In this document: in pieces, positions 3,978 through 59,400 of the stretch | Layout of the letters: every line of letters begins with the position of its first letter | Numbering within the stretch: position 1 is the first letter of the stretch | From: Escherichia phage MRostami-2023e | Direction: 5' to 3' (one strand) | Sequence record: OQ031495 | Length of the DNA: 64,000 nt | Notes under the pieces: model-generated | The model's input: only the letters and a program-made list of their open reading frames with translations | Databases searched by the model: none | Told to the model about the DNA's origin: nothing | Made by a program: the position numbers and the translations under genes

Positions 3978-4252
3978 TGGCTNNNNNNNNNNNNNNNNNN
4001 NNNNNNNNNNNNNNNNNNNNNNNNNNNNNNNNNNNNNNNNNNNNNNNNNNNNNNNNNNNNNNNNNNNNNNNNNNNNNNNNNNNNNNNNNNNNNNNNNNNN
4101 NNNNNNNNNNNNNNNNNNNNNNNNNNNNNNNNNNNNNNNNNNNNNNNNNNNNNNNNNNNNNNNNNNNNNNNNNNNNNNNNNNNNATCAAAGAGTAGTTTA
4201 CTTCTCCTCTAGTTGTGTTACTATAGACCTGTCAACTAGAGGAGAAATCAAA

Positions 4253-4711
4253 ATGACTATCAATTCAGACGTTTTTATCCGCCGTAATAAACTCCGTCGA
4301 ATCTTTGAAACGGAGTTCCGCAAAATAAATGCCAGTATAAAAGATGCTGCAAAGTCTCTTGGACTACCAGGCTTTCATATCAAGTATTCTCAACATCTCT
4401 TAGATCGTGCCATCCAGAGAGAAATAGATGAGAATTACGTTTTTGAATTATTTCGTAAAGTAAAAAATCATGTTAAAGAAGTTGCAGAATTTTTATCAAT
4501 GCCGGCACGTCCAGATGTTGATGAAGATTTTGTCGAAGGCGTCGAATATCGCCCAGGCCGTTTAGAAATAACTGATGGAAATCTTTGGTTAGGACTTACA
4601 GTCTGTCGCGAAAATCCAGCATTCAAAATGAAGACTCTTCAATGCAGAATGGCTATTATTAACAGTAAACGACTACCAGGAAAAGCTTCTAAAGCCGTGA
4701 TTAAAATCTAG
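4253..4711 (+). CDS. regB: Sequence-specific endoribonuclease RegB
   Basis: MTINSDVFIRRNKLRR...HIKYSQHLLDRAIQREIDE...GRLEITDGNLWLG...CRMAIINSKRLPGKASKAVIK closely matches T4 RegB; SD GAGGAGA at 4240-4246. Confidence 0.9.
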   Translation: MTINSDVFIRRNKLRRIFETEFRKINASIKDAAKSLGLPGFHIKYSQHLLDRAIQREIDENYVFELFRKVKNHVKEVAEFLSMPARPDVDEDFVEGVEYRPGRLEITDGNLWLGLTVCRENPAFKMKTLQCRMAIINSKRLPGKASKAVIKI

Positions 4712-4719
4712 AGGTAAAC

Positions 4720-5262
4720 ATGAGAAAAGCACTACTCGCTGGTCTATTTGCTCTTTCATTATCAGCACATAGCTCCGAGCATACTTTTAGTAATGTCCAA
4801 CTCGATAACTTGAATTATGCTTATCAGTTTGGGGAACAGTTTTCTAAGGATGGAAAATTTAAAACGCATGAAAATATGCATAAGAAAGGACTTGGATACA
4901 TAATGGCCGCAATACTATGGCAAGAATCATCTGCCGGTATTAATCTTAAAGATAAGAAAGGTCACCATGCGTATGGAATGTTCCAAAATTATCTACCAAC
5001 AATGAGGGCAAGAATTAACCAGCTTGGTTACAATATGACTGATGCCCAAATTAAGAAAATGCTATCTAAGCGGTCTAATTCAGCCAGATGGGCTTATATA
5101 GAATTTTCTTATTGGTTAAATATACATAACGGGGATATAAGAAAAGCTATATCCTCATATAATGCGGGATGGAAGACAAGTGCTGGAAGTAAATATGCTT
5201 CTGAAGTCCTAGAAAAGGCTAATTACCTTAAATCAAATAAACTACTGGAAATAAAAGAATGA
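4720..5262 (+). CDS. Secreted lytic-transglycosylase-like protein
   Basis: N-terminal signal peptide (MRKALLAGLFALSLSAHS); WQESSAG...AYGMFQ...YNAGW resembles SLT-domain catalytic motifs. Confidence 0.5.
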   Translation: MRKALLAGLFALSLSAHSSEHTFSNVQLDNLNYAYQFGEQFSKDGKFKTHENMHKKGLGYIMAAILWQESSAGINLKDKKGHHAYGMFQNYLPTMRARINQLGYNMTDAQIKKMLSKRSNSARWAYIEFSYWLNIHNGDIRKAISSYNAGWKTSAGSKYASEVLEKANYLKSNKLLEIKE

Positions 5263-5606
5263 CCAAAATGTTGGCTTTAATAGTTGGCTTGGTTTCATTT
5301 AACGCTCTTGCTAATACTACATATACTGATGTAACGGAGTATACAAACAGAACGGCGTCTGATTATTGTGGTAAAAGTCAAGAGTGTAAAGTAGATTTTT
5401 CACAAAAATTGTTATATGCGTATAAAGACGGAGAAAAAGATGGGGCGTCTAGTAGGTTCAAGGCGTCTACCTTAATTAAAAGATACTATAAAAAATGGCA
5501 AATATTAGAATGCTCGGTGGCGGAACCTAAAGATAAGGCAGCATGCAATTCTATGGTGGACCGTCTAGTTGACTCTTATAATAGAGGACTTGCAGCAAGT
5601 GATTAA
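5259..5606 (+). CDS. Secreted hypothetical protein
   Basis: Signal peptide MTKMLALIVGLVSFNALA; Cys-containing 115-aa ORF. Confidence 0.45.
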   Translation: MTKMLALIVGLVSFNALANTTYTDVTEYTNRTASDYCGKSQECKVDFSQKLLYAYKDGEKDGASSRFKASTLIKRYYKKWQILECSVAEPKDKAACNSMVDRLVDSYNRGLAASD

Positions 5607-6057
5607 AAACTATATCAAGGGCGATATTGTCGCCCTGTTTTCTAAAGGTAATAATATTGCTCATGGGTGTAATTGTTTTCATACAATGGGCGCCGGTGTA
5701 GCAGGCCAATTAGCAAAGGCTTATCCAAAAATTTTAGAAGCCGATAAACTTCAAACTGCATATGGAGACGAGTCTAAACTCGGGTCTTATTCGGTTTATG
5801 AAAAATATTTTAAGACCCATAAAGCTTATTGCTTTAATCTTTATACGCAGTTTGAGCCTGGACCTAATTTTGAGTACTCTGCTTTAATGAATTGTATAAT
5901 AGAATTAAATGAATTCGGAAAGAATAAGATAACAAAGCCTGTAATTTATATGCCAAGAATTGGTGCCGGTATTGGTGGTGGAAACTGGGATGTCATCGAA
6001 GAGATTTTAGATACGTATTCCACTAAACTAGAAATTGTGATTGTTGATTGGGAACCN
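5599..6057 (+). CDS. Macro-domain protein (TARG1/Poa1p-like), 3' end lost in masked run
   Basis: IAHGCNCFHTMGAGVAGQLAKAYP and MPRIGAGIGGGNWDV match macro-domain ADP-ribose-binding loops; start uncertain (GTG 5599 or TTG 5590). Confidence 0.55.
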
Positions 6058-6480
6058 NNNNNNNNNNNNNNNNNNNNNNNNNNNNNNNNNNNNNNNNNNN
6101 NNNNNNNNNNNNNNNNNNNNNNNNNNNNNNNNNNNNNNNNNNNNNNNNNNNNNNNNNNNNNNNNNNNNNNNNNNNNNNNNNNNNNNNNNNNNNNNNNNNN
6201 NNNNNNNNNNNNNNNNNNNNNNNNNNNNNNNNNNNNNNNNNNNNNNNNNNNNNNNNNNNNNNNNNNNNNNNNNNNNNNNNNNNNNNNNNNNNNNNNNNNN
6301 NNNNNNNNNNNNNNNNNNATGGACTGTTTTTTTTACTTTATGTAACGATGAAATGATATGTGATTTTGATTATTGGTGTTATTGCTATTGATACAATAAA
6401 GGATGTACAAATCATACAGGTGAAGGTTTCTATTCCGGGTTTCAACCGTATCCAGACTTTGTNNNNNNNNGTGAACCTAA

Positions 6481-6663
6481 ATGAAATTAACTAAAGAAGA
6501 GAAAGCTAAACTGTTCGAACTTATCCATGACCTATTGGACGAGCAAGCAGCCACCAATGCGTACGATGAATATGCTCCTTTAACAGATGAAGAATATCAA
6601 GCATTGATGGAATCATTTGACAGGAAAGAACAAGAACTCATTGACTACGTGAATTCACTATAA
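6481..6663 (+). CDS. Hypothetical acidic protein
   Basis: 60-aa ORF. Confidence 0.45.
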   Translation: MKLTKEEKAKLFELIHDLLDEQAATNAYDEYAPLTDEEYQALMESFDRKEQELIDYVNSL

Positions 6664-7815: not shown

Positions 7816-7844
7816 AGCCCCTTCCTTATGGTTGGGGCTTTTTG
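7816..7844 (+). terminator. Rho-independent terminator
   Basis: AGCCCC / GGGGCT stem with 12-nt loop followed by TTTTT. Confidence 0.6.
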
Positions 7845-7854
7845 GCATCTATCA

Positions 7855-7905
7855 GTTTACTTCTCCTCAGGTTGTGTTATAGTAAACCTTACTTACTAGA
7901 GGAGA
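7855..7905 (+). promoter_or_regulatory. Early promoter / stem-loop cassette
   Basis: GTTTAC 7855-7860, 17-bp spacer, TATAGT 7878-7883; inverted repeat TCTCCTC / GAGGAGA places the SD in the 3' arm. Confidence 0.55.
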
Positions 7906-7910
7906 ACGTT

Positions 7911-8090
7911 ATGACACGTAAAGAAAAAATTTCTAAGTTAATGTTTTTGATTGAAGAGTACGCTAATGCGGTATCTGATTGGGAAAATGCTCATGGTTGC
8001 GAAGATGGAGACATCGACATTAACAGAGCTATGAAAAAGATGGCTGACGCCCACACCGAATTGCAAATGTATGTTAACGAGATTATGTGA
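7911..8090 (+). CDS. Hypothetical protein
   Basis: 59-aa ORF downstream of the cassette. Confidence 0.45.
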   Translation: MTRKEKISKLMFLIEEYANAVSDWENAHGCEDGDIDINRAMKKMADAHTELQMYVNEIM

Positions 8091-8190: not shown

Positions 8191-8571
8191 NNNNNNNNNN
8201 NNNNNNNNNNNNNNNNNNNNNNNNNNNNNNNNNNNNNNNNNNNNNNNNNNNNNNNNNNNNNNNNNNNNNNNNNNNNNNNNNNNNNNNNNNNNNNNNNNNN
8301 NNNNNNNNNNNNNNNNNNNNNNNNNNNNNNNNNNNNNNNNNNNNNNNNNNNNNNNNNNNNNNNNNNNNNNNNNNNNNNNNNNNNNNNNNNNNNNNNNNNN
8401 NNNNNNNNNNNNNNNNNNNNNNNNNNNNNNNNNNNNNNNNNNNNNNNNNNNNNNNNNNNNNNNNNNNNNNNNNNNNNNNNNNNNNNNNNNNNNNNNNNNN
8501 NNNNNNNNNNNNNNNNNNNNNNNNNNNNNNCAAGTTGAAGAACTTTATCGACATTTAAAACACAATCGGTA

Positions 8572-8601
8572 GTTTACATCTTGGTAGGATTATGTTATAG
8601 T
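8572..8601 (+). promoter_or_regulatory. Early promoter
   Basis: GTTTAC 8572-8577, about 18-bp spacer, TATAGT 8596-8601. Confidence 0.45.
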
Positions 8602-8736
8602 AGTCCTATCAAAACGAACGGAGACCAAAATGAAACTTTTGCTTATCGCTTATGTTGTAGTACAATATAATTATCCGATGTTTACTTATAACATGGTAAA
8701 CGGCATAGTGAATCTTATTGAAACGAGTATGGTAAA

Positions 8737-11227: not shown

Positions 11228-11232
11228 ATGTG

Positions 11233-11251
11233 GGGACCTTCGGGTCCCTTT
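11233..11251 (+). terminator. UUCG-tetraloop hairpin (terminator-like)
   Basis: GGGACC ttcg GGTCCC followed by TTTAGGGGG; weak U-tract. Confidence 0.35.
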
Positions 11252-11279
11252 AGGGGGTTAAAATATTTTTAAAAAGTAG

Positions 11280-11310
11280 TGTACATGCTTTTAGGATATG
11301 TTATTATAGA
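11280..11310 (+). promoter_or_regulatory. Early promoter
   Basis: TGTACA 11280-11285 then TATTATAGA -10 region. Confidence 0.45.
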
Positions 11311-11345
11311 CCTATCGAAACGAAATGAGTAAATTGGAGAATAAA

Positions 11346-12326
11346 ATGTTCAACGTTCAAATCAAAAAAGGTATCTATCGTAATAACGAAATCTCTGGTT
11401 CTTATGTTGCCACAAAGACCTGGTTCCCAGCAAAGCTTAATCCTGAATGTTCCCACTTAGGTGACGGTAAAATTTTCGTTATGATTGATGGTTCTGAACG
11501 TGGAGTATGGGTCTTCAAATCAGACATCGTAATGGAAGGAGTTGAGACATCACCAGTTGCAGTTGTTGAAAGCACTGAAGATATGAAAACTCGTATCAAC
11601 AAACGCTTTAAAGTAATGAACATGATGACGAATGGCATTATCGATGGCAAAATTCGTTCACTCATTATTTCAGGTGCAGCCGGTATTGGTAAGACGTATT
11701 CTCTGGATAAAGCACTTAATAATGCTAATGATAATGGTTTCATCAAATACAAAAGCATTAATGGTAAAATCTCTGGTATTGGCCTTTACGAACAACTTTG
11801 GCTCAACCGTGATGCAGACAGCGTTCTCTTAATCGATGACGTTGACGTATTCTCAGATATGGACATCTTGAATCTTCTTAAAGCAGCATTAGATACTGGA
11901 GATAAACGCAAAGTTTGTTGGAGCACTGCGTCATCTTATCTCGATGATAAGGGTATTGATAAAGAATTTGAGTTTGAAGGTACTATCGTTTTCATTACAA
12001 ACGTTGATATCGATAAAGAGTTAGAACGCGGTTCGAAACTTGCTCCACACCTTCAAGCTTTAGTATCTCGCTCAGTGTATCTCGACCTTGGAGTACACTC
12101 TAATGAAGAGATTATGGTTCGAGTTGAAGATGTAATATTATCTACTGACATGATGCAGAAACGTGGTCTGACTGATGCAGAAACGTATAAAGCATTGTCC
12201 TGGATGAAGGCTAATGTATCTCGTCTTCGCAATGTATCATTACGTACCGCTCTTTATGTAGCAGATTTTATTTCAACTGATAAAGATGGTTGGGAGGAAA
12301 TCTCTGAAGTAACTTTACTGAAATAA
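11346..12326 (+). CDS. P-loop NTPase (AAA-like) with distinct N-terminal domain
   Basis: Walker A ISGAAGIGKT and Walker B VLLIDDVD; SD GGAGA before ATG 11346. Confidence 0.55.
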   Translation: MFNVQIKKGIYRNNEISGSYVATKTWFPAKLNPECSHLGDGKIFVMIDGSERGVWVFKSDIVMEGVETSPVAVVESTEDMKTRINKRFKVMNMMTNGIIDGKIRSLIISGAAGIGKTYSLDKALNNANDNGFIKYKSINGKISGIGLYEQLWLNRDADSVLLIDDVDVFSDMDILNLLKAALDTGDKRKVCWSTASSYLDDKGIDKEFEFEGTIVFITNVDIDKELERGSKLAPHLQALVSRSVYLDLGVHSNEEIMVRVEDVILSTDMMQKRGLTDAETYKALSWMKANVSRLRNVSLRTALYVADFISTDKDGWEEISEVTLLK

Positions 12327-12754: not shown

Positions 12755-12789
12755 GTTTACAAGGTCTATAGTTATGTTATTATAGACCT
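12755..12789 (+). promoter_or_regulatory. Early promoter / stem-loop cassette
   Basis: GTTTAC 12755-12760, 17-bp spacer, TATTAT 12778-12783; inverted repeat AGGTCTATA / TATAGACCT around the -10. Confidence 0.55.
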
Positions 12790-12810
12790 ATCAACTACTG
12801 GAGGTAAAAC

Positions 12811-13338
12811 ATGAACGCTAAAGATATTTTCAACCTGGTAAATTATAACGACGGTAAATTTAAATCTGAAGCACAAAGCAAGTTCTTTAATGACGTTGCT
12901 TATGGTAACGAGATTACCGTGGACGGAGGTCAGATTTTCAAATCTCGCTGGAATTGGATTGTTATCATCGATTCAGTTGGAATTGTGGAAGTCTACAAAA
13001 ACACTAACAAAAAACGTACATTATTCTGGTCTCGTGAAACTAACGAGCAGTACAAAAAGGATAAAGCATCTCGTTTATCCAAAGTAACCCAGGAAGATAT
13101 CGAGTTTATCAAGAAAGATATCGAGATGTACGAAAATTTAATCGCTGAAGACCAGGCCGTACTCGATAAGTTTGATGAAATTAAAGCTTCTCGTGAAATC
13201 CCTGACTTCATGAAAGAAACAGTAAACGAACGATACGCTCTCACTTCAGAACGTATTGCAAACTATACAAAACAGAAAGCAGAACGTATTAGTACTCTTC
13301 GGAAATTTGAAGAACGTTTAAAGACGGTTCACGCATAA
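12811..13338 (+). CDS. Hypothetical protein
   Basis: 175-aa ORF with SD GGAGG upstream. Confidence 0.5.
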   Translation: MNAKDIFNLVNYNDGKFKSEAQSKFFNDVAYGNEITVDGGQIFKSRWNWIVIIDSVGIVEVYKNTNKKRTLFWSRETNEQYKKDKASRLSKVTQEDIEFIKKDIEMYENLIAEDQAVLDKFDEIKASREIPDFMKETVNERYALTSERIANYTKQKAERISTLRKFEERLKTVHA

Positions 13339-13400: not shown

Positions 13401-14396
13401 ATGAGCATTACATCTGATGCGGTAAAACATGAAATTAACGGTTTATGTGCTTCACAGATTAAAGTGTGGTTTAAAGACCATAACGATCGCAGAGCACTTA
13501 ATTATGAACAAATTGCTATCCAAGTTCATCAATTACTGGTTAGTAAATTTGATTTTCATATGCCGTCTGAAATCTATACTAATCTGCCGCGAGCACTTAT
13601 TAAAGCGTGTAAAGGTTATGGAAAATCAATGGCTGATGGAATCTTCAGCGCGCTGAATAAACTTAACGTTCTGTCGATGATTAACTCTAACAACATCCTG
13701 CGTAATCTAGGACGTACTGATTTGTTCGGTCGTGAACAGTGTAAAATGCCTTTGAAATGGATTGTTGCTCATCTTAACGAGAACCAAACACGTTTTATGG
13801 CCGTAACAGCACGCTTACAAATGGGCCTAGATCGTCAGATGAACTTTAAAACTCATCCACGTTATTCAGGTTCAACTGACTTTTATAAATGTGAGCTTCA
13901 AAAGGTTGCAGGTAAAACTGTCTTAGTAGTTCGTGTAACGTTTGAAGGACGACGTCAAGGATATTTTGACATAATCGGCTCCGGGCTTAAACATTGCGGA
14001 TTTATCGACGAAGTTGATATCAAGCGAGACGGCACCGGATATCGTATTGGGTATGTTTGTACTCTTAAAGAAGAGATTTCAGGACCAGCACCAGGACTAA
14101 AAGACGTTAGATATAAAGACGAGCTCGTTGAAGAAATAAAAGAAGTTGAATATGATATCAACCAAGAAGATGCTCTTAAAGACCTTATTGATGAACTGAA
14201 CCAAGACGTTATTCCTGTTCAGAAATTTGAATCAAAACATGCTGAGCAAATCAAATACTTTGAAGCTTTGATTAACGAACTTAATGTAACTATTCAACAG
14301 ACTGACGATGAAATCTCACGATTAGCAGGCTTAAATGGTAAAAATAAAACAGAACGAGCTAATCTTATTCAGGTAGTAAAACTTCTTAAGGAATGA
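13401..14396 (+). CDS. Hypothetical protein with C-terminal coiled-coil-like tail
   Basis: 331-aa ORF, SD GAGG upstream. Confidence 0.55.
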   Translation: MSITSDAVKHEINGLCASQIKVWFKDHNDRRALNYEQIAIQVHQLLVSKFDFHMPSEIYTNLPRALIKACKGYGKSMADGIFSALNKLNVLSMINSNNILRNLGRTDLFGREQCKMPLKWIVAHLNENQTRFMAVTARLQMGLDRQMNFKTHPRYSGSTDFYKCELQKVAGKTVLVVRVTFEGRRQGYFDIIGSGLKHCGFIDEVDIKRDGTGYRIGYVCTLKEEISGPAPGLKDVRYKDELVEEIKEVEYDINQEDALKDLIDELNQDVIPVQKFESKHAEQIKYFEALINELNVTIQQTDDEISRLAGLNGKNKTERANLIQVVKLLKE

Positions 14397-14425
14397 TGTA
14401 CAACCAAGGATGGTTGGAGTATAAT
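14397..14425 (+). promoter_or_regulatory. Early promoter with embedded hairpin (repeat copy 1 of 4)
   Basis: TGTACA, hairpin CAACCA-agga-TGGTTG, then GAGTATAAT (-10 at 14420-14425). Confidence 0.55.
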
Positions 14426-14451
14426 AAATTTTTCAACATGAGGAATATAAA

Positions 14452-15387
14452 ATGGCTTTTATTACACGTAAAGAACTTATCAAAGAATTTACCTCGAACG
14501 CATATACTCCAGGACCTAATCCTATCCGTATGCCTGTAAAGACTCCTGAAGAGATTGAGGAAGTCTGTTCATATTATGGGATTACTTCTCGTAAGTTTAC
14601 TCAATTTGAATGCGTTACTAACACACCCGTTAAAGAGTTCATTAAAAATGGTGAGTTCAGCCGTTTATTAGCCAAACAGAAACTTCGTAATTTTTGTATT
14701 GGCGGTGAAGGACAATATTTCGCTAAGCAGTTCCGGAATAACCTTAACAATCTGATGGCCATTGCTTCTCGTATTCGTCCTCAAGCAATTAACATGAAAC
14801 ATTTGAAATATACTTACGATAAGTTGGAAATCATGGTTATCAGTGAGAATGAGTTCACTCTTACGTATAAACCTAAGAATGATAACGTTGCTCGTGTATT
14901 TCACCAAGCGTTGGAAGTTTTAGGTGATAATATCCACCAGATTAAAGCAATTTATTCACGTGAGCTTAATATTATCAACCCCATCAAGAATAAGGGTCAT
15001 ATTGCTATCCAGGCTCGTGTATCTATTGGTAAAAAGGTTCCTGCGCCATGGTGGCACAAAGACTCTGAATACTATCAAAATCTTAAAAAGGAAAATGCAT
15101 TGTTTGAAGCATCGCTTACTGGAACCCCAATTGAACAGGCCGAAGTCCTAAGTGCTTATTCTACTTCTNNNNNNNNNNNNNNNNNNNNNNNNNNNAAACT
15201 AAAAGTTTCTAATGACCTTCTTCCGGCCGAAGATTACCATTACAATCAAATCAAGGCCACTATGGACCAACTGTCTGTTGAACTTGACAAAGCACAAGCT
15301 AAGCTTCGTGATGCTCAAAGTGTTGTAACGAATCTCCAGTTGCAGTATTCTAAACTTTTTAACGCAATGAATGCATTAAAATCATAA
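14452..15387 (+). CDS. Hypothetical protein (contains a 27-nt masked run)
   Basis: 311-aa ORF with SD GAGGA upstream. Confidence 0.5.
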   Translation: MAFITRKELIKEFTSNAYTPGPNPIRMPVKTPEEIEEVCSYYGITSRKFTQFECVTNTPVKEFIKNGEFSRLLAKQKLRNFCIGGEGQYFAKQFRNNLNNLMAIASRIRPQAINMKHLKYTYDKLEIMVISENEFTLTYKPKNDNVARVFHQALEVLGDNIHQIKAIYSRELNIINPIKNKGHIAIQARVSIGKKVPAPWWHKDSEYYQNLKKENALFEASLTGTPIEQAEVLSAYSTSXXXXXXXXXKLKVSNDLLPAEDYHYNQIKATMDQLSVELDKAQAKLRDAQSVVTNLQLQYSKLFNAMNALKS

Positions 15388-15391: not shown

Positions 15392-15421
15392 GTTTACAAC
15401 CAAGGATGGTTGGAGTATAAT
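15392..15421 (+). promoter_or_regulatory. Early promoter with embedded hairpin (repeat copy 2 of 4)
   Basis: GTTTAC 15392-15397, CAACCA-agga-TGGTTG, TATAAT 15416-15421. Confidence 0.55.
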
Positions 15422-15449
15422 GAATCTATCTTAACGAGAGGAAAATATT

Positions 15450-16400
15450 ATGACACGTTCACATTACATTGAATACTTTGCAGGTCTTATCGCTAACGTT
15501 CACGCCCAACGTGCTTCTGGTGCACTAGGATTTGATGTTCCACACCGAGATGTAGTAAGTGGTATTCTTCGCGATTTTGGTACATACATAGGCCAAGAAA
15601 ATCATATCTGTAAAGATACTCAAAATGCGTATTCTCATTCGTTAGGGACGTTGCTTCAATGGTTCAAACGTTCTCGTTTATTATCTTCTACTGTAGCTCG
15701 CGATAACATTAAAAACTTTATGAAACCGAGCTTTATTAAATCTGTGACATCTAAAACTGATTTGGTTGAATTCACTATTGTTAATGATGTTAAAAAGACT
15801 CATTTGGCTGATTGGTTATCTACCATTCCTGAAACTAAATTTGCTGATAAATTTGCTTGTGAATTCAATAACCAAGTGAATATGCTTTTTAAACATTCTC
15901 GTAAATTATTCACAGGCGGCGATGATCGTACAAATAAAGTTCATGTTAAAGATTGGGTTACTGCAGTATTCAAACCAACCGGTAATGGTAACGCATCATT
16001 ATCAATTGATATCCAGGTTCCTTATTACTACTCACGTAATCTCGGTACCATGAAAGCCGAAGAAATTAATAAGCGCAACAAAACCATTCGTTCGCTGTCT
16101 TATAAACTTCGCATGATGTTAAGAATCATGGACGTGGTAGAAATGTATGATGAAACCGAAGATAATGGTTCAATGTTATACAGTTCTCGCATTCAAATTA
16201 AGTTGAAGAACCCTAACGAGTATAAGCCTAAGCCTATTAAAGAACCTAAAGTAGAAAAAGTTGATAACTTAAGAGAAGAACGCGAATATCTCAAATCTCG
16301 TCTGAAAGAAGTCGAAGCCCAGATTGCAGAACAAACTAAATCGTTAAAAGCTCTGAATGCGAAAGCGGATGGTTTACGAAATGCCATTGAGGTGTTATAA
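15450..16400 (+). CDS. Hypothetical protein with C-terminal coiled-coil-like tail
   Basis: 316-aa ORF, SD GAGAGG upstream. Confidence 0.55.
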   Translation: MTRSHYIEYFAGLIANVHAQRASGALGFDVPHRDVVSGILRDFGTYIGQENHICKDTQNAYSHSLGTLLQWFKRSRLLSSTVARDNIKNFMKPSFIKSVTSKTDLVEFTIVNDVKKTHLADWLSTIPETKFADKFACEFNNQVNMLFKHSRKLFTGGDDRTNKVHVKDWVTAVFKPTGNGNASLSIDIQVPYYYSRNLGTMKAEEINKRNKTIRSLSYKLRMMLRIMDVVEMYDETEDNGSMLYSSRIQIKLKNPNEYKPKPIKEPKVEKVDNLREEREYLKSRLKEVEAQIAEQTKSLKALNAKADGLRNAIEVL

Positions 16401-45866: not shown

Positions 45867-45867
45867 G

Positions 45868-46673: not shown

Positions 46674-46701
46674 CTTTCTATCAACTACAGAGGAAATTGA
46701 A

Positions 46702-47070: not shown

Positions 47071-47131
47071 TTGGTTTACGCCAAAGCCAAAACAAGATAT
47101 TATAAACATAACAAATCAAGAGGAAATTAAC

Positions 47132-47383: not shown

Positions 47384-47413
47384 TGTTTACATTATAGATG
47401 GACTATAGTATAG
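47384..47413 (+). promoter_or_regulatory. Early promoter / stem-loop cassette
   Basis: GTTTAC 47384-47389; GGACTAT / ATAGTCC inverted repeat around TATAGT. Confidence 0.5.
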
Positions 47414-47443
47414 TAGTCCTATCAAATCAACTAAGGAGTTAAA

Positions 47444-47737
47444 ATGAAAAAGTTATCATTGGCAGCAATCTTACTTGCAGTATCATGTGCACCAGCTCCA
47501 GTTACGGCAGGTTATGATAAAGACCTCTGTGAGTGGTCAATGACTGCAAATCAAGAAGATGTTGAACAACAAATCTTCTCTGATATCATGAACATCACTA
47601 AACGAGACCGTCCTAATATGGTTAATAAAGTTGTTGAACAACTTAAGTCTGGCGGTATCATGCAGTACAATTATGTTTTGTATTGTGACCCTAATTTCGA
47701 TAACAAAGATATCGTAACCGAAATCACAGGTGAATAA
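47444..47737 (+). CDS. sp: Secreted protein, possibly Spackle-like
   Basis: 97-aa ORF with signal peptide MKKLSLAAILLAVSCAPAPVTA, between 41 and 61 where T4 sp lies; assigned by size and position only. Confidence 0.4.
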   Translation: MKKLSLAAILLAVSCAPAPVTAGYDKDLCEWSMTANQEDVEQQIFSDIMNITKRDRPNMVNKVVEQLKSGGIMQYNYVLYCDPNFDNKDIVTEITGE

Positions 47738-50419: not shown

Positions 50420-50941
50420 ATGGCACACTTTAACGAATGTTCACAACTTATTTCTGGTGTTGATAAAGCAGAAGAAGCTTATTTTAATGCTCTGATTCAC
50501 GAAGATAAAGACCCACTGCAGGTAATGCTTGATATGCAGAAATCTTTACAGGTTCGTCTGGCAAATGACAAGCCTGAACATAACAAACATCCTGATGAAT
50601 TGGCTACCGCTGGTGATGTTGTTGATTGGCTGCGTAATCAGAAAGATTATATTGATGATGAATTCCGCGAACTGCTGACTTCTCTTGGTGGTATGAGCAA
50701 TGGCGAAAAAGCCGCCAGCAGTGTATGGAAGCCGTGGAAGGCACAACATGCTGAATATCGAAATCGTCGTATCGATGAACTGTCTCCTGAAGACCAGCTT
50801 GAAATTAAATTCGAGATGATTGATATCCTCCACTTTGTTCTGAATATGTTCCAAGGTCTGGGTCTTTCCGCTGAAGAAATCTTTAAACTTTACTACTTGA
50901 AAAACCAACACAACTTTGAACGTCAGGATAATGGTTACTGA
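50420..50941 (+). CDS. 56: dCTP/dCDP pyrophosphatase gp56 (MazG-like)
   Basis: MAHFNECSQLISGVDKAEE...DPLQVMLDMQ...DVVDWLRNQKDYIDDEFRELLTSLGG...EIFKLYYLKN matches T4 gp56. Confidence 0.9.
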   Translation: MAHFNECSQLISGVDKAEEAYFNALIHEDKDPLQVMLDMQKSLQVRLANDKPEHNKHPDELATAGDVVDWLRNQKDYIDDEFRELLTSLGGMSNGEKAASSVWKPWKAQHAEYRNRRIDELSPEDQLEIKFEMIDILHFVLNMFQGLGLSAEEIFKLYYLKNQHNFERQDNGY

Positions 50942-50986
50942 TTAAGTTATAAATACACCTGTAATTAAACAACAAAGGAGTTAATT

Positions 50987-51223: not shown

Positions 51224-51232
51224 ATAATTTAA

Positions 51233-51261
51233 GGAATCCTTCGGGATTCCTTTTTTTTTTT
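51233..51261 (+). terminator. Rho-independent terminator
   Basis: GGAATCC ttcg GGATTCC followed by 11 T. Confidence 0.8.
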
Positions 51262-51270: not shown

Positions 51271-51300
51271 GTTTACAACCACTAAAAACTGTGTTAAGAT
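51271..51300 (+). promoter_or_regulatory. Early promoter
   Basis: GTTTAC 51271-51276, 18-bp spacer, TAAGAT 51295-51300. Confidence 0.5.
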
Positions 51301-51328
51301 ATTCTTACTTACTCAAGAGGAGAACAAT

Positions 51329-51556
51329 ATGTTAAATCGTTGGATTAAACCTAATAACACATTAGGTGCTTTGATTGCTCAAGAAGTTTCGTTGAAATAC
51401 GGTCTTGGATATTACGATGATGTAGTCGTACACTCATTTATGATGGATGGTGAAGACGTCAAATTTAATGCCGAAATCCGTTGGGATGATGGTGGTGTTC
51501 GTTTTGTTCGAGGAACAATTAATGCTTACGATACTGAAGAAGTTATTTGCTGTTAA
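51329..51556 (+). CDS. Hypothetical protein
   Basis: 75-aa ORF with SD AGAGGAGAA. Confidence 0.45.
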   Translation: MLNRWIKPNNTLGALIAQEVSLKYGLGYYDDVVVHSFMMDGEDVKFNAEIRWDDGGVRFVRGTINAYDTEEVICC

Positions 51557-52591: not shown

Positions 52592-52752
52592 AAGAGAAAT
52601 TTAAAGAGAAATTCTTACTAGAAATCAAGGAAAAAGACTTTGAGACATGGTATCGAATGGTGAAAGGGTTGACATTGCTTTTTAAAGCATCGTTATTCAT
52701 GTTAGAACAACCTGGCCCTGATGGACCTTTAGTAGGAAAGCTTAAAAAGTAG
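52588..52752 (+). CDS. Small hypothetical protein
   Basis: 54-aa ORF overlapping upstream stop; below track cutoff. Confidence 0.3.
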   Translation: MKEKFKEKFLLEIKEKDFETWYRMVKGLTLLFKASLFMLEQPGPDGPLVGKLKK

Positions 52753-52780
52753 TTTACATTCCCTCCTCTCGTGTTATGAT
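52753..52780 (+). promoter_or_regulatory. Early promoter
   Basis: GTTTAC 52753-52758, 16-bp spacer, TATGAT 52775-52780. Confidence 0.5.
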
Positions 52781-52807
52781 AGGCTTATCTTTAAATGGAG
52801 GTCTATC

Positions 52808-53389
52808 ATGACATGTCAATCTGAACTTCAAGAACGTGAATACCTAACAAATCTGATTGATAGCAAATTCACCCGCCAAGAACAAAACATTCTCTGGGCT
52901 TGCACCGATTCTAAGGAAGACCCGGATTTCCACTATGAATTAGACCATCTTGTTCGTAAGCATATGACTTCTACAGTACCAGTAGAACTCTACCGTGGTG
53001 TAACTCCAGAAGAAGTAGAACGTCTTTCCCTTCTTTCTGTTGGATGCCATTGGTCTCCTGGGCGAGTAACATCGTTCACAACTGATTTCAGTACAGCTCG
53101 TCAATTCTCTGGGAGATGGGAATATCAGACGTACACTATTCTTAGTCTCAGGAATGCTCCATTCATTTTTGATTACTACCAAAACATGATTAACATTGTA
53201 CTCGCCGGAAAGAACCCTAAGCATGTTATGGAAGAAACGCGTGTTGACGTCCTAGATATGATTGAATCTGAACAAGAGTACATGGTCTCAGGCATCTCTC
53301 GATTTGAGATTGTGGAAATTGAAGACTTAGAATATGACCCTTTATCTCGATTATACAAAATCATTCATTTGAAAATGTTGAATTTTTAG
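52808..53389 (+). CDS. ADP-ribosyltransferase, ModA/ModB-like (paralog 1)
   Basis: R-S-E triad candidates: LYRGV, FSTARQF, EQEYMVSG; 193 aa. Confidence 0.6.
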   Translation: MTCQSELQEREYLTNLIDSKFTRQEQNILWACTDSKEDPDFHYELDHLVRKHMTSTVPVELYRGVTPEEVERLSLLSVGCHWSPGRVTSFTTDFSTARQFSGRWEYQTYTILSLRNAPFIFDYYQNMINIVLAGKNPKHVMEETRVDVLDMIESEQEYMVSGISRFEIVEIEDLEYDPLSRLYKIIHLKMLNF

Positions 53390-53418
53390 TGTACAAACTC
53401 TTTAGATGATGATACTAT
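53390..53418 (+). promoter_or_regulatory. Early promoter
   Basis: TGTACA 53390-53395, 17-bp spacer, TACTAT 53413-53418. Confidence 0.5.
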
Positions 53419-53446
53419 ACCTTTATCAACCACAGGAGAAACCTAA

Positions 53447-54055
53447 ATGTTTATGCCGTATAACGAGTGTGAAATTGAAGAAATGGTTCGTCGTGCTCAA
53501 AACCCCGAATATCAAGATGTATTGCAGTACGAAATTGATAGTCAATTCAACGATAATGAACAAAGCATCCTTTGGCAGTGTATGGAAAACAAGCCAGACT
53601 GTATTCAACAGGAGTTAAGTTCAATCGTTCGTAGAAATTGGACGTCTTCTGTTCCTGAGACAATGTATCGTGGAATCTCTAAGAAAACTATGGCCACACT
53701 TGATGATAAAGGCATTGGTAGTATTATTAAATTTGACAGAGTAATGAGCTTCAGCCCAGTGTTCGGTGTAGCACGTAACTTTGCTTCGTATAATTTTTAC
53801 GGAACATTTAATATGTTCTGCATCAAAGATGCACCATTTGCTTTCAACTTCCGTGAACATATGCTTAACATGATTCTGGCTGCGCCATCTTGTGAGTTCA
53901 ATGGAGCTTTCCCTGAAGCGACAAGACGGTCTAATGCTAGACTTATATCTGACGAATGTGAATTTATGCTCCCTATAGGGACTACACTGCGTGTAGATTC
54001 TATTATTCAAGATGGACGTTATACAATCTGGAATCTGTCTATTGTCAGTTACTGA
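53447..54055 (+). CDS. ADP-ribosyltransferase, ModA/ModB-like (paralog 2)
   Basis: MYRGI, MSFSPVFGVARNF, DECEFMLP; colinear with 52808-53389; 202 aa. Confidence 0.6.
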   Translation: MFMPYNECEIEEMVRRAQNPEYQDVLQYEIDSQFNDNEQSILWQCMENKPDCIQQELSSIVRRNWTSSVPETMYRGISKKTMATLDDKGIGSIIKFDRVMSFSPVFGVARNFASYNFYGTFNMFCIKDAPFAFNFREHMLNMILAAPSCEFNGAFPEATRRSNARLISDECEFMLPIGTTLRVDSIIQDGRYTIWNLSIVSY

Positions 54056-54113: not shown

Positions 54114-54130
54114 ATTTTATGAAAAAAGAG

Positions 54131-54159
54131 TGTACACTACCTGAGGGCATGATATTATA
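54131..54159 (+). promoter_or_regulatory. Early promoter
   Basis: TGTACA 54131-54136, 17-bp spacer, TATTAT 54154-54159. Confidence 0.45.
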
Positions 54160-54208
54160 AGCTTATCAGCTAAATGACCTTAACGTCCGTAAGACAGAGG
54201 AAAATATT

Positions 54209-54955
54209 ATGTTATCAAATAATAAAATTAACAAAATCAATCGTCGTCTTGACCACACCAGAGCTTCTGCGAAGAGACGCTCTAAGGATTTTAACTTAGA
54301 CTTTAATTACCTTAAAAACATTCTTGATCAAAAGGTCTGCGCTTACTCAGGTGAATCTTTTAATAACTCTGTTGAAGGTGAGAAATTATCCTTAGAACGT
54401 TTTAATAATGATATAGGCTACATTAAAGGTAATGTCATCCCAGTTAAGAAAAAATATAACACGGCTCGTTCTGATTTAACATTAGAAGAACTTATTGAGA
54501 AACGTGATGCCATTGCAAGACGTATCGCTAATCCTTCTGCCCGTAAAGTAGAGAAACTTAATCTCGACGAGAAGAAATGGGCCCAAATTAAAAAGGTTTA
54601 TGGCACTATTTTAAAAATCCGAGCAAAACGTGAAAATCGTGTTAAGCATATGGCGAACATGATGAAAAATCAACCTTTATCTAACGAATCTAAACTTAGA
54701 ATTGTTGCTTTGAAAGCACGCATTAATGGCTCACATCAAGCAGAAGGCCATGAACTTACTAAACTCAATGTTCTTCTTAAAGGCTCTGACTGGAAAACTA
54801 AAACTAAATTAACTGACGCTGAATCGCTTTTCGATACATATGATAAAGTTATCCAAGGTCTGCAACGTTTTGAAAAGATTGGTTTCATTGGTAAATTAAA
54901 ATTGAAACGTGGCTTACCACTTAGCGCATCATTATTCCAACTGATTAAAGGTTAA
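54209..54955 (+). CDS. Hypothetical basic protein at the T4 srd position
   Basis: 248 aa; N-terminal CAYSG...LERFNNDIGYIKGNVIPV is loosely HNH-like but lacks the catalytic His. Confidence 0.45.
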   Translation: MLSNNKINKINRRLDHTRASAKRRSKDFNLDFNYLKNILDQKVCAYSGESFNNSVEGEKLSLERFNNDIGYIKGNVIPVKKKYNTARSDLTLEELIEKRDAIARRIANPSARKVEKLNLDEKKWAQIKKVYGTILKIRAKRENRVKHMANMMKNQPLSNESKLRIVALKARINGSHQAEGHELTKLNVLLKGSDWKTKTKLTDAESLFDTYDKVIQGLQRFEKIGFIGKLKLKRGLPLSASLFQLIKG

Positions 54956-57271: not shown

Positions 57272-57301
57272 GTTTACAACCAAGGATGGTTGGAGTATAA
57301 T
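57272..57301 (+). promoter_or_regulatory. Early promoter with embedded hairpin (repeat copy 3 of 4)
   Basis: GTTTAC 57272-57277, CAACCA-agga-TGGTTG, TATAAT 57296-57301. Confidence 0.55.
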
Positions 57302-57331
57302 CTTTCTATCTTAACCAAACTGGAAAACATT

Positions 57332-57826
57332 ATGAATATCAATACTACGGCTACTTACATCCTGAAAGATGAAAAACAAATTAACTGGTACGGTGCTTCA
57401 GTGCGAGCTTATGAAAAGTTTTGTGAAATTTTAGGTGCCACTCAAGGTAATAGTTTCACTATTGTTAACTTCATCAAACAAGCTGAAGGCCCTTGGTTAT
57501 TCTTAGAAATTAAAAATTCATATGGTACAATTTCTACTACCGCCCTTCCAAGCACCGACTTTGAACTGTTGATTGAAGAAGTAGAACCCGTTAAAGACAT
57601 CTGTATTGATATGGATATCGCTTGTATGTACGGTACTCTGATTAAGCCTATTGAGCCTACTGATTTGTTGTGTAAAGCTGTTTCAATTCGACGTCCGTTC
57701 GCAGGTCCAGTGAGTGGATGGGTAACTGATCAGTGGATTGAAGACGGTGTTGAACTTCTGAACGTTGTTCATGCAGGTGATTTTAGTGTAGTTCCACGTA
57801 GTGCTGTGGTTAATATTCTAAATTAA
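57332..57826 (+). CDS. Hypothetical protein, tandem paralog family member 1
   Basis: C-terminal GWVTDQWIEDGVELLNVVHAGDFSVVP shared with 57889 and 58363 ORFs. Confidence 0.5.
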   Translation: MNINTTATYILKDEKQINWYGASVRAYEKFCEILGATQGNSFTIVNFIKQAEGPWLFLEIKNSYGTISTTALPSTDFELLIEEVEPVKDICIDMDIACMYGTLIKPIEPTDLLCKAVSIRRPFAGPVSGWVTDQWIEDGVELLNVVHAGDFSVVPRSAVVNILN

Positions 57827-57829
57827 TGT

Positions 57830-57858
57830 TGTACATCCAAGGATGGATGGAGTATAAT
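57830..57858 (+). promoter_or_regulatory. Early promoter with embedded hairpin (repeat copy 4, compensatory variant)
   Basis: TGTACA, hairpin CATCCA-agga-TGGATG (both arms changed, pairing preserved), TATAAT 57853-57858. Confidence 0.55.
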
Positions 57859-57888
57859 GAATTCAACTTAAACAAAGAGAGAAAAATT

Positions 57889-58353
57889 ATGATTACTATT
57901 GGTGAAATTAAGCGTGTATCAACTGCATCCCGTTCTAAAGCCGCAGGTCGTCTGGTTGAAGTTGTCGGACTTCGCACAAATGGCATGGGACGTATTAAAG
58001 AAGTTAAAGTTCGAATCATTCCTAGCTTTGGACGTCAGGATACTCAGTACGCTTACGTAAGTCCTAAATTCCTGGAATCTCGTGTGAGTGCCCACTTTGC
58101 TTCAAGCGATATCGTTGAGCCTACTACACAGTTCAAATGGGCCTTGTGTAAAGGTGTTGAATTCCAGACTGATAAAGAATTTGACTTCATCGATGAATAC
58201 GGTTATCCAAACAAAACTGATATTATGTGTGGCTTCATTAGTGACCAATGGGTTGAAGATGGTGAAAAGTTATACAATATCGTATTCTTAGGTGACTTCC
58301 GAGTTGTTAAAGAATCTGAAATCACTCGCTATGTGTCTCCTCGTAAAGCTTAA
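57889..58353 (+). CDS. Hypothetical protein, tandem paralog family member 2
   Basis: IKRVSTASRSKAAGRLVEV...GFISDQWVEDGEKLYNIVFLGDFRVV. Confidence 0.5.
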   Translation: MITIGEIKRVSTASRSKAAGRLVEVVGLRTNGMGRIKEVKVRIIPSFGRQDTQYAYVSPKFLESRVSAHFASSDIVEPTTQFKWALCKGVEFQTDKEFDFIDEYGYPNKTDIMCGFISDQWVEDGEKLYNIVFLGDFRVVKESEITRYVSPRKA

Positions 58354-58362
58354 GGAATTATT

Positions 58363-58782
58363 ATGAATATTGTAAATCTCTCTACAGGTGATTACGTATA
58401 TGTATCTGTTGCTTCTCGCTCTAAAGTTGCCGGGAAGTTGGTTGAAGTTCTTTCTGTGAGTGATCCGGTTTTTGGTCGTAACGAAGTTAAAGTTCGTGAC
58501 GCCGATGGTAACATTGGTTACGTTAAAAGCCAATTCATTGAACCAGAAGAAAAAGCGTTCAAATGGGGACTATGCAGATCAGTTTCTGTTGAAAAAGACC
58601 ATGAATTCACTATTGCTGCGGCAACTGATGGAACACCGTGGAAAACTAAGCAAATCGCCGGATTTATTAGCGACCGTTGGGTAGAAGATGGTGTTAAGCT
58701 TTATAACATCGTTTTCGCTGGACAGTTCATGGTAGTTCCTGAATTCCAAATTAAAAAATATAGCCCAGCTGCTTTCGCATAA
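58363..58782 (+). CDS. Hypothetical protein, tandem paralog family member 3
   Basis: VSVASRSKVAGKLVEV...GFISDRWVEDGVKLYNIVFAGQFMVVP. Confidence 0.5.
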   Translation: MNIVNLSTGDYVYVSVASRSKVAGKLVEVLSVSDPVFGRNEVKVRDADGNIGYVKSQFIEPEEKAFKWGLCRSVSVEKDHEFTIAAATDGTPWKTKQIAGFISDRWVEDGVKLYNIVFAGQFMVVPEFQIKKYSPAAFA

Positions 58783-58786
58783 AATT

Positions 58787-58836
58787 GTTTACTTCTCCTC
58801 TGGTTTTGATATTATAACCATATCAACCAGAGGAGA
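58787..58836 (+). promoter_or_regulatory. Early promoter / stem-loop cassette
   Basis: GTTTAC 58787-58792, 17-bp spacer, TATTAT; inverted repeat TCTCCTCTGGTT / AACCAGAGGAGA with SD in the 3' arm. Confidence 0.55.
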
Positions 58837-58841
58837 ATAAT

Positions 58842-59366
58842 ATGTTAGTTTACCGCGTAGAACGTAGTTTTTGTACTCAACGTGAATCATTACCGGGAAT
58901 TGCTATCGAAGACGGTAAAGCCGTCAGAATTTGGGAAACCTCTTGGAATAAAGAACCTCGTTCGCCATATGGTTGGTCGGGCACCGACAACTCTGAAGAA
59001 ACATGGGAGTTCCTTGATAAGCATGGAATACTCTCAGGTAACTTCTACCATCACGGCGACAACTATAACGTCCCTAATCGTCCTACAGTAAATGAAGACA
59101 AAATCCTTGAACAAAATATCTTAAGATACTATAGAATTGAGCACACATTTGAATTGAGTGAAGATTGGGCTCAAGGGTTCTATTTTGGATTTGAAAGTGT
59201 TGACGCGGTTTATGCATGGTTTGATGACCAGGTGGATGTTGAACTCTTGAAAGCTAAAGGATACTACATCGCTGTCTATGAAGCACCTGATTTCATCCTC
59301 GGAAGTTGTCAATTAATGTTTAGACGTTCATTGGCAGAACAAGTTGATTTTATTTTGCTAAAATGA
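58842..59366 (+). CDS. Hypothetical protein
   Basis: 174-aa ORF. Confidence 0.5.
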   Translation: MLVYRVERSFCTQRESLPGIAIEDGKAVRIWETSWNKEPRSPYGWSGTDNSEETWEFLDKHGILSGNFYHHGDNYNVPNRPTVNEDKILEQNILRYYRIEHTFELSEDWAQGFYFGFESVDAVYAWFDDQVDVELLKAKGYYIAVYEAPDFILGSCQLMFRRSLAEQVDFILLK

Positions 59367-59400
59367 TGTACAACAACTATGGTCTATGATACTATAGACC
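59367..59400 (+). promoter_or_regulatory. Early promoter / stem-loop cassette
   Basis: TGTACA 59367-59372, 17-bp spacer, TACTAT; GGTCTAT / ATAGACC inverted repeat. Confidence 0.5.

Follow-up and report, generated by a model that had tools for sequence, protein, structure and literature searches.

Early promoter cassettes of an RB69-like Escherichia phage, a subset of which is predicted to bury the ribosome-binding site in read-through RNA

RESULTS

The window and its cassettes

The DNA considered here is a 64,000-nucleotide stretch of Escherichia phage MRostami-2023e (record OQ031495), referred to throughout as the window. It comes from a T4-type phage of the RB69-like (Mosigvirus) group: identity is 99.7 to 100% to Escherichia phage vB_EQ1, read on its reverse strand, and about 98% to RB69, in which the window corresponds to about 2.4 to 66.4 kb. 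All genes lie on the plus strand, as do all features described below, and the early region covered runs, in order, through e/denV, regB, tk, nrdC, nrdD, 55, 46, 45, 43, uvsX, 41, dda, motB, cef, and 39. Punctuating this region is a family of early promoter cassettes, each a 55- to 65-bp unit composed of an A/T-rich upstream region, a -35 element (GTTTAC or TGTACA), a 16- to 17-bp spacer, a TGn motif, a -10 hexamer (TAnnnT), a conserved start region (AGACCTATCAA-like), a GGAG-type Shine-Dalgarno (SD) sequence, and an ATG. In about a third of the cassettes, part of the promoter itself is complementary to the SD region and is predicted to hide it in RNA that enters from upstream.

An initial annotation of the window had described about twenty such elements, 15 of them with positions, as GTTTAC or TGTACA followed by a 16- to 18-bp spacer and a TAnnAT hexamer. 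All 15 positions hold one of the two -35 sequences, a 16- to 17-bp spacer, and a -10 hexamer that TGn nearly always precedes; the hexamer is TAnnAT at most of them but TATAGT at 7855, 8572, and 47384. The pattern TTTACN{13,16}TGNTANNNT has 15 matches, all on the plus strand, against 1.4 ± 1.1 expected from shuffles (about 0.7 chance matches on the plus strand). A wider regular expression finds 20 matches on the plus strand and none on the minus strand, and a position matrix (at least 12 bits) finds 27 and none. A generic sigma-70 scan was rejected as a detector, as its 68 sites are not distinguishable from the 63 ± 8 found in shuffles; what is specific is therefore the T4-type pattern, with its TGn motif and conserved start region.

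After refinement, the set holds 25 sites, so that the figure of about twenty was a slight undercount. Twenty-four are solid cassettes, one member of the set having been found through a deletion junction, and the remaining site is a doubtful intragenic match at 17778 (17777-17806), which lies within a small open reading frame (ORF) upstream of pin and is not followed at the usual spacing by an SD or ATG. The cassettes beyond those first listed are 658, 1255, 14397, 15393, 45434, 47075, 54131, 57273, and 57830. Eight stretches of the window are masked with N, and no further cassette lies under them, judged by proxy in the relative EP02SG.

The distance from the -10 hexamer to the ATG is 27 to 32 nt in 22 of the 24 cassettes, and the genes that follow are accessory early genes, named here after the RB69 annotation: denV, an internal-protein (IP) gene, regB, mobD.2a, nrdC.10, nrdC.8, nrdC.5, nrdC.3, 55.6, ORF075c, ORF041c, ORF040c, imm.1, imm, sp, mrh.2, modB, modA, srd, motB.1, motB, motB.2, and cef. 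The 21.7-kb core replication block, which spans 23.7 to 45.4 kb and genes 55 through 41, is free of cassettes (P of about 3e-4 given the gene boundaries). Identical stretches of at least 12 bp occur in 24 of 276 cassette pairs versus 7 of 1,653 control pairs, the longest being 31 bp. GGAGRAYARAA, the consensus of sites sensitive to the RegB endonuclease (PMC3014915), is found with at most two mismatches in 8 of 24 cassette initiation regions versus 3 of 59 controls (RegB/S1 consensus, p = 0.0016), while the others deviate from it.

Some annotated GenBank start codons fall inside cassettes, namely those at 59379 (cef, vB_EQ1), 57826 (motB, vB_EQ1), and 22490 (55.6, RB69). These are probably wrong, because ATGs with a proper SD sequence are present at 59424, 57889, and 22527, respectively.

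Inverted repeats that reach the SD sequence

About 17 of the 25 sites carry an inverted repeat, which reaches the SD sequence in 8 (class A), straddles the -10 hexamer in 5 or 6 (class B), and lies within the spacer in 4 (class C); several of these repeats are not above shuffles. Class A, in which an arm in the spacer pairs with a 3' arm that contains the SD sequence, comprises cassettes 658, 4197, 45868, 58788, 22470, 7856, and 45434, with 52753 as a variant. The initial annotation had attributed this arrangement to most cassettes, which was too generous: it is present in about 8 of 25 overall, and the 15 sites listed there include four strong cases, one moderate case, and one variant (modB).

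The strong class A stems (cassettes 658, 4197, 45868, and 58788) have 10 to 13 bp, -19 to -24 kcal/mol, and z-scores of -4.3 to -7.9, where z-scores here and below come from comparison with shuffles and MFE denotes the minimum free energy. The denV cassette (657-716) pairs its spacer arm TTCCTCCAAG with CTTGGAGGAA, SD included (MFE, -19.1 kcal/mol; z = -4.3). Perfect 13-bp stems are present in the cassettes of regB (4196-4255; TTCTCCTCTAGTT / AACTAGAGGAGAA; -21.6 kcal/mol; z = -5.0), the ORF040c homolog (45867-45924; TTCTCCAGTAGTT / AACTACTGGAGAA; -21.1 kcal/mol; z = -5.9), and motB.2 (58787-58844; TTCTCCTCTGGTT / AACCAGAGGAGAA; -23.9 kcal/mol; z = -7.9). The cassette of the 55.6 homolog (22469-22529) is a moderate case, with TCCTC...GAGGA and an inner stem (-11.5 kcal/mol; z = -4.5), and five relatives carry a better-pairing allele of it. 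At mobD.2a (7855-7913), the stem TTCTCCTC / GAGGAGAA is imperfect and supplemented by additional pairs (z = -1.8), and the cassette of the ORF041c homolog (45433-45494) is weak (CTTCCTCT / AGAGGAAA; z = -1.9). In the modB variant (52752-52810), it is the -10/discriminator segment ATGATAGGC that pairs with the SD and ATG (GGTCTATCAT; -13.1 kcal/mol; z = -2.4).

Chance complementarity does not readily account for these stems. Spacer-SD duplexes exceed those of shuffled spacers at cassettes 658, 4197, 7856, 45434, 45868, and 58788 (p ≤ 0.007) and moderately at 22470 (p = 0.027). With 95 nt of upstream context, the probability that the SD is unpaired, P(unpaired), falls below 0.05 for 7 of 18 genes behind a cassette, compared with 5 of 58 window genes that have none (Fisher p = 0.005).

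Read-through and cassette-initiated RNAs

The initial annotation had further proposed that read-through transcripts carry a sequestered ribosome-binding site and that transcripts started at the cassette do not. We modelled read-through RNA from 40 nt upstream of the -35 element and cassette-initiated RNA from 7 nt after the -10 hexamer, and we give P(unpaired) of the SD in that order. The proposal holds for the class A subset, where predicted SD accessibility is 0.00 to 0.06 in read-through RNA versus 0.35 to 0.80 in cassette-initiated RNA, but not for about two-thirds of the cassettes. The individual predictions are 0.00 versus 0.38 for denV, 0.00 versus 0.80 for regB, 0.00 versus 0.78 for mobD.2a, 0.00 versus 0.74 for ORF040c, 0.00 versus 0.35 for motB.2, and 0.06 versus 0.35 for modB; the value on read-through RNA is 0.06 or less at cassettes 658, 4197, 7856, 22470, 45868, 52753, and 58788. 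At cassette 45434, P(unpaired) is 0.37 in a longer context, and sequestration there is not clear. The 5' arm always lies upstream of the presumed start point.

The stems covary, in keeping with a check that had been suggested for them. An alignment of the paralogous cassettes 4197, 7856, 45868, and 58788 with their ortholog variants, from which the denV-type cassette 658 was excluded, has 95.7% of stem cells paired versus at most 61% with slid partners, and three pairs are altered on both sides. For the regB and denV orthologs, we scored the duplex energies of cognate versus noncognate arms instead, since MAFFT sets the regB stems of different lineages out of register and column-wise covariation is unusable on them; cassette 658 was excluded above on the same ground. 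The SD is folded into a hairpin of this kind in 7 of 8 regB lineages from IMG/VR, and cognate regB arms reach -19 to -23 kcal/mol versus a noncognate mean of -12. Among distinct denV upstream regions with a T4-type promoter, P(unpaired) of the SD is predicted to be 0.1 or less in read-through RNA in 24 of 24 and in the gene's own transcript in 0 of 24, and cognate arms average -14.4 versus -9.0 kcal/mol for noncognate ones. The denV lineages use two interchangeable designs, one pairing the spacer with the SD and the other pairing the -10/discriminator with the SD and ATG. Homologs of denV on jumbo-phage contigs of 345 to 378 kb have no sequestration; a terminator and then another type of promoter are found there instead.

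T4 itself has the same anti-SD design at regB (TTTTCCTCTTGACTG / CAGTTAAGAGGAGAA), denV (TCTCCTGTAG / CTACAGGAGA), and motB.2 (TCCTCGGTTAG / CTACTGAGGA), and at T4 modB the -10 region pairs with the SD and ATG, as it does in modB of the window. All four T4 stems differ in sequence from those of the window. Because the pairing is kept with covariation across paralogs and in other genera, it appears to be under selection.

Cassettes with other hairpins or none

In class B (cassettes 8573, 12756, 23598, 47386, and 59367, and partly 11280), a palindrome spans the -10 hexamer and the SD lies outside it. The strongest is that of the RB69 ORF075c homolog (23597-23660), with 11-bp arms ACGATAGGAAG / CTTCCTATCGT around the -10 hexamer (MFE, -18.6 kcal/mol; z = -4.9). 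The others precede a 36-amino-acid ORF (8572-8632; TTGGTAGGATTAT...ATAGTAGTCCTATCAA; -15.7 kcal/mol; z = -3.2), nrdC.8 (12755-12813; AGGTCTATA / TATAGACCT; -14.0 kcal/mol; z = -2.4), sp (47385-47446; GGACTATA / TATAGTCC; z = -1.7), and cef (59366-59426; GGTCTATGATACTATAGACC, weak; z = -1.5), where the SD is free in both contexts. Within the ORF075c palindrome (23604-23637), the 12-nt loop ACATGTTATTAT, which holds TGn and the -10 hexamer, is exactly reverse complemented to ATAATAACATGT in phage phiEC1 (KY608965). This change is an inversion across the inverted repeat and should destroy the promoter; the gene that follows it in phiEC1 has GTG as its start codon.

Class C cassettes have a 5-bp hairpin wholly within the spacer and precede nrdC.5 (14396-14454; AACCA-AGGA-TGGTT), nrdC.3 (15392-15452; z = -1.3), motB.1 (57272-57334), and motB (57829-57891), the last with a compensatory change (ATCCA-AGGA-TGGAT). 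The nrdC.5 cassette has 27 identical bp in common with those of nrdC.3 and motB.1, and the latter two share 31.

Structure above shuffles is absent at cassettes 1255, 46645, 47075, 51272, and 54131. These belong to the internal-protein-like gene (1254-1316; an RB69 ORF124c homolog with the N terminus MKTYKEF; z = +0.2), imm.1 (46644-46704; z = +1.4), imm (47074-47134; MFE of 0 kcal/mol and no TGn), mrh.2 (51271-51331; z = +0.2), and srd (54130-54211), which has a long leader of 51 nt from the -10 hexamer to the ATG and no promoter-embedded arm. At modA (53389-53449), the pairing is weak or insignificant (-6.5 kcal/mol; p = 0.10).

Separate terminator-like hairpins stand upstream of four cassettes. 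Judged by sequence and fold, the hairpin just 5' of cassette 7856 (AGCCCC...GGGGCTTTTTGG; 7816-7845) is rich in G+C and has a T run after it. The hairpin GGGGACCTTCGGGTCCC (11232-11248), 5' of cassette 11280, forms the right edge of the ORF-A indel relative to RB69. A fold of AAAGGAGAC-TTCG-GTCTCCTTT (45407-45428) lies just 5' of cassette 45434, and a hairpin like an intrinsic terminator, AAGGAATCC-TTCG-GGATTCCTT followed by T10 (51231-51252), lies between soc and cassette 51272. An Rfam scan of the window returned no matches.

Gene-content changes at cassettes

The cassettes had also been proposed to be recombination hotspots that shuffle gene modules. We compared seven Mosigvirus genomes (EQ1, RB69, EP02SG, phiEC1, LNA2, mar005p1, and RPN187), counting all indels or replacements of at least 30 bp in the homologous regions. 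There are 25 such events, and hybrid-cassette junctions are found at 4. In EP02SG, ORF041c is gone, cassettes 45434 (left partner) and 45868 (right partner) having crossed over at the SD. The window has no ORF102c, a gene that sits between two cassettes in RB69, LNA2, and RPN187, and the nrdC.10 cassette (11279-11348) is a hybrid of those two, with the crossover within the shared 19-bp ATGTTATTATAGACCTATC; phiEC1 has lost the same gene independently, by a crossover at the SD. RPN187 has lost motB.1 by a crossover between cassettes 57273 (left) and 57830 (right). LNA2 has a cassette-flanked insertion of 213 bp. Roughly 20 Mosigvirus records out of some 150 have the ORF041c-less form, and motB.1 is missing from JK45 as well. 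At a greater distance, Dhakavirus homology starts exactly at cassette 45868, and Tequatrovirus homology stops exactly at cassette 57830, at its -35 element.

The breakpoints as a whole bear out the hotspot proposal only weakly. About 6% of genes have a cassette on both sides. Of 50 breakpoints, 16 lie within 40 bp of a cassette. The excess over random sequence positions is very strong (p of about 4e-12), mostly because cassettes are intergenic; against random gene boundaries, of which 21% would be expected to lie this close, it is marginal (p = 0.04), and against the boundaries of plastic regions only (28% expected) it is not significant (p = 0.34). Together with the four hybrid junctions, this weak enrichment leads us to regard the cassettes as genuine but occasional recombination substrates.

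Several other features of the comparison touch individual cassettes. TGCTT, which resembles a MotA box, is present in the spacer of cassette 11280 (CATGCTTTTA; 11286-11294) and in that of the second ORF102c-flanking cassette (TTTGCTTTA), and by their sequence these two may be overlapping early/middle promoters. Allele replacement among relatives at the internal-protein-like gene begins about 44 nt inside the ORF, an indel of 61.4 stops 24 bp upstream of the imm.1 cassette, and a polymorphism of 340 versus 72 bp ends 42 bp 5' of cassette 8573. The last coincides with the masked stretch 8191-8530. Most of the masked stretches fall on sequence that close relatives keep, lack, or replace (1680-2119, 3983-4184, 6057-6318, 8191-8530, and 18442-18626), ORF087c being present or absent at 18442-18626.

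The comparison showed further differences. At 1177-1184, after denV, the window lacks 136 to 138 bp of an internal-protein-like frame whose flanks overlap by 6 to 8 bp; the segment is present in 6 of the 7 relatives, including the otherwise identical vB_EQ1, while phiEC1 aligns without a gap, and the denV ORF of the window continues to 1250 as a 178-amino-acid fusion. In the gene 46/47 to 45.2 area (27685-27901 and 29577-29645), phiEC1 and mar005p1 carry insertions of 826 and 806 bp, which are of homing-endonuclease-gene size and have no cassette association. Between gene 56 and soc (50904-50947), RB69, EP02SG, and phiEC1 have 232 to 410 bp extra, with no early cassette near.

DISCUSSION

What the cassettes may do

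We read these elements as Mosigvirus early promoters that are the T-even form of the promoter-early stem-loop (PeSL) cassettes; about a third of them would bury the SD on read-through RNA, and they occasionally serve as crossover sites. We give this reading a probability of roughly 75%. From what is known of T4, host sigma-70 RNA polymerase would start about 7 nt after the -10 hexamer, so that every accessory early gene would be served by a separate transcript whose leader measures some 20 nt. A segment 5' of this putative start point (the spacer or, at modB, the -10/discriminator) is complementary to the SD region in roughly one cassette of three. RNA from upstream promoters would fold into a hairpin of -13 to -24 kcal/mol with the SD buried in it, and the cassette's own transcript, without the 5' arm, would be translatable, as folding and covariation suggest. 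Synthesis of the products of regB, denV, motB.2, modB, and some ORFans would be confined to the period in which their own early promoter fires, and class A genes would be insulated from read-through middle and late RNA. Such read-through would stem from the heavily expressed IP genes in the case of denV and from the vs genes in the case of regB. Neighboring cassettes, for their part, occasionally cross over through the phage recombination system because they share identical stretches of 12 to 31 bp in direct orientation. As the hybrid junctions show, a crossover of this kind deletes or inserts the intervening gene; it is one contributor to gene-content change and not the dominant one.

Several observations weigh against this reading. 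The SD is sequestered in only about 8 of the 25 cassettes, and SD gating does not account for the 9 or 10 whose palindrome spans the -10 hexamer or whose hairpin lies in the spacer. The z-scores are modest at cassettes 7856 and 45434, the second of which does not clearly bury its SD, and read-through itself may be limited at both, since terminator-like hairpins sit directly upstream. The start sites of this phage are assumed from T4-type promoter geometry, and the gating of translation by class A hairpins is put forward from folding, covariation, and analogy with certain T4 genes that have an internal late promoter (see below). As for recombination, enrichment over gene boundaries is weak, both ends are free of cassettes in 14 of the 25 events, plain microhomology lies behind some cassette-adjacent deletions (modB), and the breakpoint comparison rests on seven relatives.

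One alternative holds that the stem-loops terminate or attenuate transcription and thereby shut each cassette off from RNA synthesis begun upstream, SD burial being incidental. An RB49 PeSL stem-loop placed before lacZ reduced expression to the same degree as the rrnB T1 terminator did (PMC2839356), four cassettes of the window have separate G+C-rich hairpins with T runs upstream (7816, 11232, 45407, and 51231), and the class B and C hairpins miss the SD and so need some other role. The lacZ assay, however, cannot tell termination from an effect on translation. Moreover, the class A hairpins have loops of 20 nt and are followed by A-rich sequence rather than a U run, and their 3' arm includes the SD in all 24 denV upstream regions and in 7 of 8 regB lineages despite differing stems, a constancy for which a pure terminator has no need. 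We consider this alternative unlikely, though it is the strongest of those weighed here. The complementarity could, at the other extreme, be a functionless by-product of composition, pyrimidine-rich spacers facing purine-rich ribosome sites, or of recent duplication. The SD does impose the proximal CTCC/GGAG stem, cassettes 4197, 7856, 45868, and 58788 are clearly paralogs, and 10% of permuted spacer/SD pairs have energies at or below -10 kcal/mol. Yet for six cassettes the observed energy is attained by only 0 to 2 of 300 spacer shuffles, the distal stem halves, dispensable for promoter and SD alike, are altered on both sides, and orthologous promoters of other genera keep the pairing with unrelated stems. 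The shuffles, the covariation, and the regB and denV comparisons largely refute this explanation, to which we assign a very small probability.

Two further explanations grant the repeats a function of a different kind. They might act as DNA, whether as cruciforms or hairpins or as palindromes bound by protein, and drive recombination or promoter control such as early shut-off. The exact inversion of the 23598 loop in phiEC1 indicates that a DNA repeat can drive rearrangement, class B is centered on the -10 hexamer, and class C lies wholly in nontranscribed spacer; the PeSL authors speculated on a stem-loop-binding protein (Comeau 2014 / Arbiol 2010), and the mechanism of early-promoter shut-off is unexplained in the literature. 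Against this, the palindromes vary between promoters and covary, with no common operator, the class A arms stand 20 to 22 nt apart, which is unfavorable for cruciform extrusion, and the crossovers seen fall between direct repeats (promoter, start region, and SD) and not at hairpin tips. The more specific idea that the palindromes are a shared operator of an early-promoter repressor was ruled out, as their sequences differ between promoters, and a DNA-level role as the general explanation seems improbable. About as improbable, if marginally less so, is that the hairpin serves mainly to protect GGAG on long transcripts against RegB, acting on mRNA stability rather than as a translation block. 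RegB cuts GGAG in early SD sequences, secondary structure blocks this cutting, the RegB/S1 consensus is enriched in the cassette initiation regions, and the best-conserved hairpin sits at regB itself. The SD of T4 denV, on the other hand, is RegB resistant in vivo for sequence reasons, and yet the denV hairpin is the most widely conserved; and since a buried SD is untranslatable anyway, protection alone would give the downstream gene little. Shielding from RegB is in any case compatible with translation gating rather than exclusive of it.

Significance

As an extension of known PeSL and T-even cassettes to an RB69-like phage, the catalogue itself is of ordinary value. The sequenced hybrid junctions confirm that neighboring cassettes recombine and thereby remove or add single genes. 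The role in recombination is real but modest: most indels among close relatives bypass the cassettes, a result that tempers the picture of a mobile regulatory cassette.

The only part that may be new is the anti-SD arm, conserved with covariation across T-even genera, that the early promoters of regB, denV, motB.2, and modB contain. It is possible that this reflects a T-even rule, whereby the early promoters of these genes and of some ORFans encode the anti-SD strand and only RNAs from a gene's own promoter are translated; we hold this wider proposal tentatively, at somewhat less than even odds. If it is true, every read-through RNA would be silent at those genes, in a mirror image of the late-promoter hairpins discussed below, and the arm would explain the immediate-early-only schedule of single genes in tightly packed, multiply promoted early regions. 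Translational insulation would also let a shuffled cassette function regardless of its new genomic context, and it would offer a simple design for context-independent expression cassettes. The proposal is directly testable in T4, where tools for regB and denV exist.

Comparison with known systems

The elements belong to the known PeSL/T-even early-promoter cassette kind, recognized here in an RB69-like phage, and the likeness to T4-type PeSLs drawn in the initial annotation is well founded. PeSLs have been described in RB49/phi1 (Arbiol et al. 2010, PMC2839356) and in PST/T4 and nt-1/KVP40 (Comeau et al. 2014, PMC4122927). Like them, the cassettes of the window are repeated intergenic units of A/T-rich region, -35, -10, stem-loop, SD, and ATG that are concentrated in hyperplastic regions, 5' of small nonessential ORFs, and the PST/T4 consensus TTTACW-N17-TAYWAT fits the window sites. 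The RB49 stem-loops likewise lie between the -35 and -10 elements or overlap the latter, and the hybrid crossovers of the window, between the -10 element and the SD or ATG, agree in position with those in sequenced RB49 PeSL mini-circles. The stems differ in that those of RB49 are of the form G(n)...C(n) and those of PST/T4 lie just 5' of the promoter, whereas many in the window and in T4 span from the spacer or -10 element to the SD. Promoter, terminator, and mini-circle activities were shown by experiment for the published PeSLs, whereas the window cassettes are known from sequence. Both PeSL papers (PMC2839356, PMC4122927) read the stem-loops as terminators and never discuss translation, so that ribosome-site gating is an addition of the initial annotation and not a published PeSL trait.

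The promoters themselves correspond to the "uber" early promoters of T4, with UP, -35, TGn, and -10 elements (Hinton 2010, PMC2988021); the two agree in their elements and consensus, down to the additional positions conserved outside the sigma-70 hexamers. The initiation regions in part resemble the RegB-sensitive early regions with GGAGRAYARAA (Durand et al. 2006, PMC1702504), cassette genes being enriched for a GGAG SD followed by an A-rich tract. Orthologous genes are involved in both (regB, denV, motB, modA/B, cef, imm, and sp); the phage genus differs, and the promoters of the window are predicted from the sequence. A third parallel is the shuffling of IP genes in T-even phages (Repoila et al. 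1994, as cited in PMC2839356 and PMC4122927). Cassette 1255 with the conserved first 15 or so codons that follow it (MKTYKEF...) precedes alleles swapped among relatives in the same way, although the window has a single such locus, which is partly N masked.

For the anti-SD arm, the closest precedents are T4 e, soc, 49, and I-TevI, in which the SD/AUG is held in a helix on RNA started upstream and an internal promoter yields a shorter, helix-free RNA that is translated (reviewed by Uzan and Miller 2010, PMC3014915). The T4 reviews consulted describe ribosome-site sequestration for such late-promoter cases only, and we found no description of anti-SD arms in early promoters in the PeSL papers or T4 reviews, a search that left the older T4 literature, including the 2003 genome review, uncovered. 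Class A shares with these genes the predicted SD burial on upstream-started RNA and a promoter so placed that, with the start points assumed here, its transcript loses the 5' arm. The known cases, which were proven by experiment where those of the window are predicted from folding and covariation, use late gp55 promoters (TATAAATA) that delay expression to late times. The promoters of the window are of the early sigma-70 type, and the 5' arm is their own spacer or -10 element. Because the promoter is early, the gating effect would be reversed, with translation confined to the early-promoter period. In this sense, the class A elements are predicted to work like the e/soc/49/I-TevI family without being members of it in the strict sense.

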